Source: Planctomycetota bacterium | GTDB taxonomy: Bacteria; Planctomycetota; UBA1135; UBA2386 | Direction: 5' to 3' | Length of the DNA: 64,000 nt | Assembly: GCA_947501605.1 (NCBI GenBank) | Contig: CANMWZ010000019.1 | Location: forward strand, 25,279-89,278 | Part shown: piece after piece, positions 28,247 through 30,348 of the stretch | Layout: every line of letters starts with the position of its first letter | Numbering within the stretch: position 1 is the stretch's first letter | Made by a program: the position numbers and the translations under genes | Notes under the pieces: model-generated | Database searches by the model: none | Told to the model about the DNA's origin: nothing | Seen by the model: the letters and a program-made list of their open reading frames with translations, nothing else

Positions 28247-29377
28247 TCAGGCCGGCAACAGCGGCTGCAAGGCGGCGAGCACCTTGTCGGCCTGCCGCAT
28301 CATGCCGAGGTCGTTGGGATGCGAGCCGTCGGTTGTGCCTTCGCCATCGGTGCCCAGCAGGTCGGCGCCATCGAGCAGGTGTAGTCCCTTGACGCCATCG
28401 CGCACCATCGCCGCGACCGCGGCGCGCAAGGCGGCGCGGCGCCGTTGATGCTCGCGCGCGCGGGTCTCGTCACACCAGGCATTGGCAAACGTGCGATCTT
28501 CGACGAGCAGGATTGGCGTGTCCTTGCGGGCCAGACGCAGTTGCCGCACCAGCGGCTCGGTGCGTTCGGCGACCTGTTCTGTGCTCATGTTGGGCAGGCA
28601 GTCGACGACGAACACCTCGGGATCGAGTTCGACGAGGAACTGCACCACTTCGCGCTCCATGCGCCCGTTGCCGGCGAAGCCGAAGTTGAACACTTCGCGA
28701 TCGAGGGTGCGCCCGACAATCGCGGGCCACGCCATGCCCGGCCGCGACGCCGAGGCGCCGTGCAGAATCGACGTGCCGTAGCAGACGATCGAACGACCTG
28801 CCGTCGAACGCCGCGGCAGCGGCAACAGGTCAAAGCCCTCGCCGACGCCGAGTTCGAGCTTGTCGACGCCGTTGTAGAGCGGCAGGTAGAGCTGGAACGA
28901 CCGTGGCTCGGCGCGCGTCGGCAGACCCTGGACCAGTTGCATCTCCACGACCTGCCCCGCCGGTCGGGACACCTGCATCCACCGCCAACGCGCGCCATCA
29001 AGACCGTAGAGATCGACCCCGCTGACGCCAGTCGCCGGCATGTGGGCCAAGTCGATGCGCGCGCTGGTCAGACGGTAGCGAACGTGGATCTCGGGACTCG
29101 CGGTCGCAAAGCGGACGACCATGCCAGCGCTGTGGCGCGATAGGTCCCACACCTCGCTGCGCACGACGGCCTCGGCTCCGAGCGGCAAGCGGTCGTAGGG
29201 CGCTTTGCGAGCCGCGAAGGCGCGGCCTTCGATGGGGAAGTCGGCGACATCGATCCACGTTGGCGGCGGCGAGCACGGAGCAACAGGAGTCGGTCCAGCG
29301 GCAGCGCTCGAGGGCAACCGCAGGCTCGCCGTCGCCAAAGCGGTGCCGAGGAAGGAACGACGCGAGAGGAAGGGCAT
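28247..29377 (-). CDS. Tat-exported SGNH hydrolase with N-terminal GxDLY domain
   Basis: SRRSFLG Tat motif, SGVDLY, YGTSI.HG, NFGFAGNG, DGSHPNDLG. Confidence 0.9.
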   Translation of the reverse strand: MPFLSRRSFLGTALATASLRLPSSAAAGPTPVAPCSPPPTWIDVADFPIEGRAFAARKAPYDRLPLGAEAVVRSEVWDLSRHSAGMVVRFATASPEIHVRYRLTSARIDLAHMPATGVSGVDLYGLDGARWRWMQVSRPAGQVVEMQLVQGLPTRAEPRSFQLYLPLYNGVDKLELGVGEGFDLLPLPRRSTAGRSIVCYGTSILHGASASRPGMAWPAIVGRTLDREVFNFGFAGNGRMEREVVQFLVELDPEVFVVDCLPNMSTEQVAERTEPLVRQLRLARKDTPILLVEDRTFANAWCDETRAREHQRRRAALRAAVAAMVRDGVKGLHLLDGADLLGTDGEGTTDGSHPNDLGMMRQADKVLAALQPLLPA

Positions 29378-29486
29378 CGGCGCGAAGATACCCCTTCGAC
29401 TGAGCCTGACAGCAATCACCAGCACCAACGCTGTCGCGTTCATTCTCGGGCAGTTCGAGGGCAAGCGAACCGCGTCGTCGTCCGCG

Positions 29487-29933
29487 CTACTTGAGCCGCG
29501 ACAGTCGCGCTGCGACCTCGCGCCCGTCCTTGCTCACGAGTTCTCCGTCCTCGTAGAGCCACAGCGTCGGCAGCTGGCGGATGCCGTACTGCAGCGCTAC
29601 CGGCGACTGCCAGTCGCCGACATCGACGCGGCGGAGTTTGACCTGCGGATGCTGTTCAGCGAGCGCCGCCAACTGCGGGCCCAGGATCTTGCACGCGGGT
29701 CAAAACTCGGCGGTGAACTCCACGATCAACAGGCCCGAGGACGTCACGTAGGACTCGACGTTCACGCGCTCGCCGGTCGAGATCGTCGCGACCTCTTCGG
29801 CGGCCATGAGCGCGGCCGCACGGGCGCGCTTGGGCTTGCTGTTCTGGTGATGGACGACGAAAGCGACCGATCCGAGCATCAGCATGACCACCGCCGCGAT
29901 TGCGACCTTCAACATGGGCAGTCGATCGGCCAT
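29487..29933 (-). CDS. Membrane-anchored thioredoxin-like protein, probable selenoprotein (in-frame TGA at 29700-29702 read as Sec, UxxC)
   Basis: Joins ORFs 29700..29933 and 29487..29672 in one frame: IVEFTAEF-TGA-PACKILGPQL...VDV...A.QYGIRQLPTL. Confidence 0.85.
29661..29682 (-). promoter_or_regulatory. Putative bacterial SECIS hairpin
   Basis: GGGCCCGC-AGUUG-GCGG(C)GCUC stem-loop starting 18 nt after the UGA, GU in apical loop. Confidence 0.55.
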
Positions 29934-30348
29934 TCGGTGGTCGGGCTGGAGCCACAGGTCCTGCGACGGGTGGCGCCGTACCGCCGACCAACCCAGATCG
30001 GTCCGTCGGCAGCAGGCGACCGGCCGCGCCTTCGGTCACTGGCATCGTGCGCGTGGCGCCTTGCAGCTCGGGGCGCGTGGGGGCGCAGCGATCGAGTCGC
30101 ACCGCCTCGTACTGGTCCTGCGGCCCCCCCTCCAGCGTCCGCGCCGATGCTCGCAGTAGCGCAACAAGACGGACTGGATCAGCACGTCCGTAGCACGAGC
30201 GCAGGAAGGTCGATCGCCACCGCGCCCAGCGCGGCGGGACTCTTGCCGATGGCCACGAACGGCGCGTCGTCGACGGCTTGCACCTGCAGCTGCCTCTAGG
30301 TCGACAACGGCGGACCGCCGTGGTTGGATGCTGGAGCGAACGCCGCCC

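Follow-up and report, generated by a model that had tools for sequence, protein, structure and literature searches.

A predicted exported selenocysteine thioredoxin of Planctomycetota with a conserved SECIS-like hairpin and a sigma28-type promoter motif

Selenocysteine (Sec)-containing thioredoxins and planctomycete selenoproteins are both already published, and the gene described here does not represent a new kind of system. Table 1 of PMC13188914 counts a bacterial Sec-thioredoxin (Trx, PF00085, UxxC) among the experimentally verified selenoproteins, citing Kim et al. 2015 (ref. 84 there), seven cases are given in PMC1794560, and the protein also appears in PMC9312934. For the planctomycete strains P1 and P2, section 17 and Table S9 of PMC4807772 report Sec machinery together with selenoprotein candidates, two of which are ‘thiol-disulfide isomerase-like thioredoxin’ candidates that are each annotated as two genes. 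The 57,630 selenoproteins of BSepDB, as described in PMC13326102, may include members of the subfamily considered below, possibly under ‘Trx’.

The locus studied here lies in a window of 64,000 nucleotides, the whole stretch of planctomycete DNA that was analysed, and comprises the following features.

29487..29915, minus strand: Sec-thioredoxin gene, 142 codons and a TAG stop, with its likely start at ATG 29915, the Met at which close database relatives also begin
29700..29702, minus strand: in-frame TGA, the U of U-P-A-C and residue 72 of 142, TGA in 18/18 aligned genes and identical in the contigs of 4 DNA runs
29661..29682, minus strand: predicted SECIS hairpin, an 8-bp stem with one bulge and a 5-nt loop AGUUG at 29674-29670, 25 nt behind the UGA
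29490..29795, minus strand: thioredoxin-fold domain, about residues 41-142, with first strand TISxGExV, U-x-x-C and the invariant Pro116
29853..29906, minus strand: N-terminal hydrophobic segment of 18 uncharged residues, a predicted membrane anchor or uncleaved signal (helix 3-24 in the structural model)
29925..29950, minus strand: sigma28 (FliA/WhiG)-type promoter motif, TCCAG (29950-29946), 15 nt, GCCGAT (29930-29925), 9 nt before the ATG

Like the known bacterial Sec-thioredoxins, the encoded protein belongs to PF00085 and has Sec at the attacking position of UxxC, with a SECIS right behind the UGA. It differs from them in having an anchor, replaced in some relatives by a lipoprotein or other signal peptide, in its F/W-U-P-A-C site and TISxGExV strand, and in its near-invariant hairpin, which encodes PQLE, and its sigma28-type motif. 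The terms ‘signal peptide’, ‘periplasm’ and ‘Planctomy’ do not occur in the main text of PMC13188914. With the P1 and P2 candidates of PMC4807772 the gene shares a home in the Planctomycetes, a full Sec machinery and the splitting of thioredoxin-like genes, but those candidates are listed there without a SECIS and the likeness is one of description only. CcmG/DsbE (TIGR00385), TlpA (NF047696), ResA (NF002854) and StoA (NF041202) also combine an anchor with a Trx-fold CxxC domain, and DsbD/CcdA is present in the genome; the window’s protein, however, falls far under their cut-offs (StoA 22 of 210 bits, DsbE 14 of 123) and, unlike them, is a minimal classic Trx fold without insertions that contains Sec and lies in no ccm or other operon. 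The Trx-like selenoproteins modelled in NCBIfam (SaoT, HUIPC, VPGUxxT, WAxxUGC, TsoB and GOS_C) share a Trx fold with Sec in the redox motif, and none of their models matches the protein at E 0.1. A literature search, with most subscription papers outside its scope, found no description of an exported Sec-thioredoxin subfamily, of its near-invariant SECIS or of its promoter. Judged from sequence, the exported subfamily is a new variant within the known Sec-thioredoxin family.

The initial annotation had read two short open reading frames as a single frame broken by a lone TGA. This reading holds: on the minus strand the frame spans 29933-29487, reads EFTAEF*PACK across the TGA at 29702-29700, and ends in TAG. 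Translated through the TGA, the protein scores 57 bits against Pfam Thioredoxin PF00085 (cut-off 23.5), while the upstream half alone has no match and the downstream half alone reaches 24 bits. The TGA does replace the attacking Cys of the thioredoxin site, the same column being TGA in 18/18 aligned genes, whose identity to the window’s protein is 35-53%, and Pro116 is invariant in this family alignment. We predict with high confidence that this is a real selenoprotein gene.

Homologs bear out the conservation of the codon. Seventeen carriers were found among 60 relatives, and all 17 have TGA, none TGC or TGT; 16 are single-domain proteins and one is the first domain of a Sec + Cys two-domain protein. 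A class-wide search of 251 genomes matched 26, of which 24 had a TGA row and 11 were new, and 11/11 of these new members have U-x-x-C with TGA. In a phylum-wide search of 401 genomes, 41 matched, and the 29 loci that were fetched comprised 20 with TGA and nine with TGC at the site. In all, we count 75 distinct Sec forms from Planctomycetota and metagenomes, these related genes and genomes being kin and not independent samples. A FastTree tree of 147 domains, with protein homologs drawn from a 50%-representative search, has Sec and Cys forms interleaved and weak deep nodes; its 135-member clade takes in a two-domain thioredoxin of the ordinary kind, and ‘Cys’ forms taken from databases enter the tree as protein sequences only. 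With the query used, the gene was not found in the four same-genus genomes (62-84% complete), no relative was found on viral contigs, and a scan of genome contigs with a pattern ending in Cys, which is blind to TGA forms, returned ordinary thioredoxins only. The expectation that standard annotation would miss the gene is met in close relatives, which are deposited as 71-aa and 65-aa halves.

Some family members depart from the usual layout. A signal-peptide protein (L038:1051-1851, G023) has tandem family domains, the first with Sec and the hairpin and the second with Cys, and two anchored members (L146 of G257, and P0058) have lost the U/C-x-x-C motif entirely.

An AlphaFold model built from 17 family sequences (mean pLDDT 87.8) has a helix at the N-terminus that is joined by a flexible linker to a classic thioredoxin fold, and its closest structural matches are thioredoxins (Foldseek E 1.5e-7; Z 11.6, rmsd 3.4, 111 aligned). 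Its score over the gathering cut-off, the Trx fold, the U-x-x-C motif and the invariant Pro116 place the protein in PF00085. It is not a canonical TrxA/TrxC (TIGR01068, PRK09381, PRK10996), scoring 52 against 96.8 bits and having FUPAC and an N-terminal anchor, and in the NCBIfam scan no model reached its cut-off and no selenoprotein-specific model matched. The active site departs from WCGPC in its PA dipeptide and in the Phe that replaces Trp in 8/18 genes. The gene adds a well-defined and widespread selenoprotein subfamily whose members are cut in two by gene callers and lie outside every NCBIfam model.

Our main reading, to which we assign a probability of about 0.75, is that the gene encodes a 142-residue Sec-thioredoxin, anchored in the inner membrane with U-P-A-C facing the periplasm, that acts as a DsbD-recharged disulfide reductase or isomerase of the envelope. 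The basis for a mechanism is the chemistry of thioredoxins and of DsbD. The N-terminal anchor would hold the protein in the inner membrane with its U-P-A-C site toward the periplasm, Sec72 would attack the substrate disulfide of an envelope protein, Cys75 would resolve the attack to give an Se-S bond, and a DsbD-type protein would reduce this bond again. Arguing by analogy, we lean towards attack, resolution and re-reduction operating as one mechanism.

A DsbD-type gene on contig C9 encodes two DsbD_N, one DsbD_TM and one Trx domain, and its product scores 106 bits against the NCBIfam DsbD model, whose cut-off is 330. Directly after this two-DsbD_N gene (L154, G000:C9:77251-80889) comes one for a TlpA-like CxxC protein. 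DsbD_TM occurs in 59/61 close genomes with or without the Sec-thioredoxin gene and therefore shows no specific link to it. Inspection by eye of ORF translations at 18 loci, with 1.5-kb flanks, found no shared neighbour. The gene downstream in the window (28247-29464, minus strand) encodes an SGNH/GDSL hydrolase with a twin-arginine-like leader and has its own TAnnnT box before an inner ATG, so the two genes probably do not share a transcript.

Instead of a DsbD-fed reductase, the exported selenoprotein could be an oxidase or isomerase, or could reduce small molecules (peroxide, metalloid or polysulfide) at the cell surface. We consider such roles possible but rather unlikely: the PA dipeptide and the Phe before Sec, both unlike WCGPC, would suit them, as would the missing gene link to dsbD or any partner and the short loop ahead of the last helix in the model, yet the Pro and the fold are those of a classic thioredoxin, the best matches are thioredoxins proper, and the protein is without a DsbA helical insert, a dimerisation domain or a TlpA/Prx insert. 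The attacking position of the Sec also speaks for its acting as a nucleophile.

Relatives with lipoprotein or signal peptides are the ground for placing that reductase in the periplasm; in the window’s protein the proposed transmembrane anchor was found as a hydrophobic stretch of 18 uncharged residues. Across the family, 70/75 Sec forms have an N-terminal hydrophobic segment, a lipobox is present in 7/75 as counted by eye (a script flagged eight, two of them wrongly, and missed one), and many Cys relatives have signal peptides. The claim that the protein is extracytoplasmic is supported at family level by these segments and lipoboxes but not by the charges of the window’s own copy, which point the other way, with a net +1 before the hydrophobic stretch and +4 within 15 residues after it. 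This pattern is the most unfavourable among close relatives, of which 9/62 have +3 or more after the anchor. It is what one would expect of an inversely anchored selenoprotein whose domain lies in the cytoplasm and is recharged by thioredoxin reductase, an arrangement that we judge distinctly improbable since position 2-3 is Lys/Arg almost without exception, 45/62 anchored relatives have no more charge behind the anchor than ahead of it, and lipoprotein and signal-peptide forms occur within the same family. On balance the thioredoxin domain is quite likely to lie outside the cytoplasm, which would point to selenium chemistry in a compartment where few bacterial selenoproteins have been described.

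Relatives start with Met-Lys/Arg at the window’s second ATG (29915), as do the deposited 71-aa halves of close relatives, and the ATG chosen in the initial annotation (29933) falls between the two boxes of the promoter motif. The length of 148 aa given there is therefore likely to be 142 aa, and translation can be expected with little doubt to begin at 29915. A GCCGAT-like box stands 8-11 nt before the ATG in 13/17 genes of the first set (12/17 by automatic start picking), in 8/11 held-out class genes and in 12/27 metagenome genes; outside the class it precedes only 2/19 Sec forms, and the background in this genome is 56/2658 genes. In family genes a TCAAG-like box lies 15-16 nt upstream of the GCCGAT-like box. 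Genome-wide, TCAAG-N-G[CT]CGAT occurs within 120 nt of a gene start seven times at spacer 15 and 14 times at spacer 16, whereas none of 16 other spacers gives more than two occurrences (0-2 each). Among the hits obtained with looser boxes are genes for a flagellin, an Hpt protein and a histidine kinase and, on contig C32, another Sec candidate.

Table 2 of PMC4183435 gives E. coli FliA sites as TAAAG/TCAAG and GCCGAT boxes 14 nt apart. The boxes here are the same, and one flagellin gene of the genome has the motif, but the spacer of 15-16 nt is 1-2 nt longer and the ATG follows 8-11 nt behind the -10 box. At the level of sigma class, these sequences suggest that a sigma28-family factor probably produces a near-leaderless message. 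Two FliA/WhiG genes of the genome score over cut-off, and a good motif match precedes only 2/5 of its flagellin genes, so the factor would be a ‘sigma28-like’ one, with both gene products as candidates. The conserved motif offers a first handle on the timing of production. A scan for sigma70 promoters and intrinsic terminators found none near the Sec-thioredoxin gene. Two RNA runs of one study (X10 and X12) cover the gene but also intergenic DNA and look DNA-like, and in runs X19 and X20 the gene was not covered.

Two broader patterns also appeared. The genes preceded by TCAAG-N15/16-GCCGAT form a putative sigma28-type regulon that takes in a flagellin, a probable flgB, an Hpt protein, a GTPase-kinase, probable pilus ATPases and the C32 Sec candidate. 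Separately, TAnnnT hexamers peak 6-12 nt before predicted ATGs genome-wide (23-57 genes per position against about eight), which suggests that many leaderless sigma70 transcripts may exist beside Shine-Dalgarno genes.

Only tentatively do we propose a wider picture, in which the envelope of uncultured Planctomycetota houses a redox system based on selenium and the anchored Sec-thioredoxin is a stage-specific part of it, recharged by DsbD and produced from a sigma28-family-driven leaderless message at the same time as genes for motility and signalling are expressed. If this is true, no earlier selenoprotein family has been linked to a sigma regulon of the flagellar or developmental kind; of the genomes sampled in this phylum, 285/401 have selA.

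Whether or not this picture holds, the genome (91% complete) is equipped to decode UGA as Sec. selA (471 bits), selB (335), selD (348) and a tRNA-Sec (79 bits) are each over their family cut-offs, and selD carries an in-frame TGA of its own. The machinery and the selD TGA bear out the implied selenoproteome of this planctomycete; its novelty does not stand, since planctomycete selenoprotein candidates are already in print in the sections of PMC4807772 cited above. TGA is the stop codon in 2377/2867 confidently predicted genes, and, as the main stop, it has undergone no genome-wide reassignment. selA is over cut-off in 59/61 close genomes, including all carriers of the Sec-thioredoxin, in 34/34 further genomes with a TGA row (three rows not inspected) and in 11/17 genomes with Cys-only rows. 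With 285/401 genomes of the phylum sample as background, and counting selA only, the 59/61 close relatives make Sec use look common in the phylum.

The bacterial SECIS model as set out in PMC13188914 has a loop of 3-9 nt, a stem of 4-16 bp, a G in the first two loop positions, a distance of 16-37 nt from the UGA and an MFE of at most -7.5; the window’s hairpin, with AGUUG, 8 bp, 25 nt and a folding energy of -12.8 kcal/mol, agrees with this model throughout. Its stability is not greater than that of shuffled sequence (z -0.6 to +0.8), so energy alone does not mark it out. The Gln-Leu codons behind the UGA are CAG TTG in 18/18 genes and the Pro codon is CCT in 15/18, in a genome where TTG makes up 15% of Leu codons and CCT 9% of Pro codons. 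When the structure was tested on the same alignment from which it was derived, 88.9% of cells were paired and 4/7 pairs had two-sided changes, whereas 0/500 shuffles reached this level and slid structures reached at most 64%. In the window’s own copy, a U-A pair of the stem is swapped for G-C, which turns the family’s Glu into Ala. A metagenome scan with the hairpin core fixed and the active-site codon left free (TGN) gave 50 matches, 36 thioredoxins and 14 unrelated; of these thioredoxins, 35 have TGA and one TGC. When every distinct domain with known DNA is counted, 65/75 Sec forms keep the inner four pairs, against 2/22 Cys forms; 27 of the 75 Sec forms came via the pattern, and half of the 22 Cys forms belong to ordinary thioredoxins. 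These comparisons show a hairpin sequence that is conserved, covaries, tracks with the TGA and is lost in Cys forms. Near-invariant but with natural compensatory changes that alter the protein, it lends itself to tests of how planctomycete SelB recognises a SECIS.

The UGA is almost certainly decoded by tRNA-Sec with SelB bound to the hairpin. Insertion of Cys or Trp in place of Sec, to which the Cys found at this position in many relatives might lend colour, is highly improbable: the Rfam tRNA-Sec is the sole UCA-anticodon tRNA at default settings, selA, selB and selD are present, the hairpin agrees with the SECIS model, TGA is the genome’s main stop, and Trp directly precedes the TGA in 10/18 genes, so that the TGA aligns to Cys.

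Sequencing error was checked in four DNA runs from four studies, whose contigs span the codon with an identical TGA; three of the contigs have no other differing letter and one has a single differing letter at an unlisted place, and each run carries a flag that the assembly may derive from it, which cannot be true of all four. A nonsense mutation, pseudogene or sequencing error, which the deposition of close relatives as two halves and a real TAG break elsewhere in one relative could bring to mind, has next to no probability beside the identical TGA in these four runs and a TGA kept in 75 distinct sequences that are conserved on either side of it. The relative in question (L137, G247) has the Sec TGA and a TAG directly after the anchor, and is either a broken gene or an assembly error. 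The base at window position 30131, in the intergenic DNA upstream of the Sec-thioredoxin gene, is absent from all four runs, and the window’s assembly therefore likely holds an extra base there.

Coding-potential scans of the genome (G000) brought out six further likely selenoprotein genes besides selD (L155-L160), at these loci.

C18:32545, minus strand: candidate selenoprotein locus
C1:343603, minus strand: candidate selenoprotein locus
C32:8515, minus strand: candidate selenoprotein locus
C15:32957, minus strand: candidate selenoprotein locus
C7:58886, minus strand: candidate selenoprotein locus
C5:35864, plus strand: candidate selenoprotein locus

Two other candidates, C2:122561 and C1:235064, were rejected as chance or as a junction of two ribosomal protein genes. 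The six comprise two TlpA/ResA-like proteins, one Trx7-like and one redoxin-like, all four with UGPC and a Trx fold, together with a SelW-like protein with CxxU and an FG-GAP protein with W-U-C. Signal-like N-terminal sequences are present in 5/6 of them.
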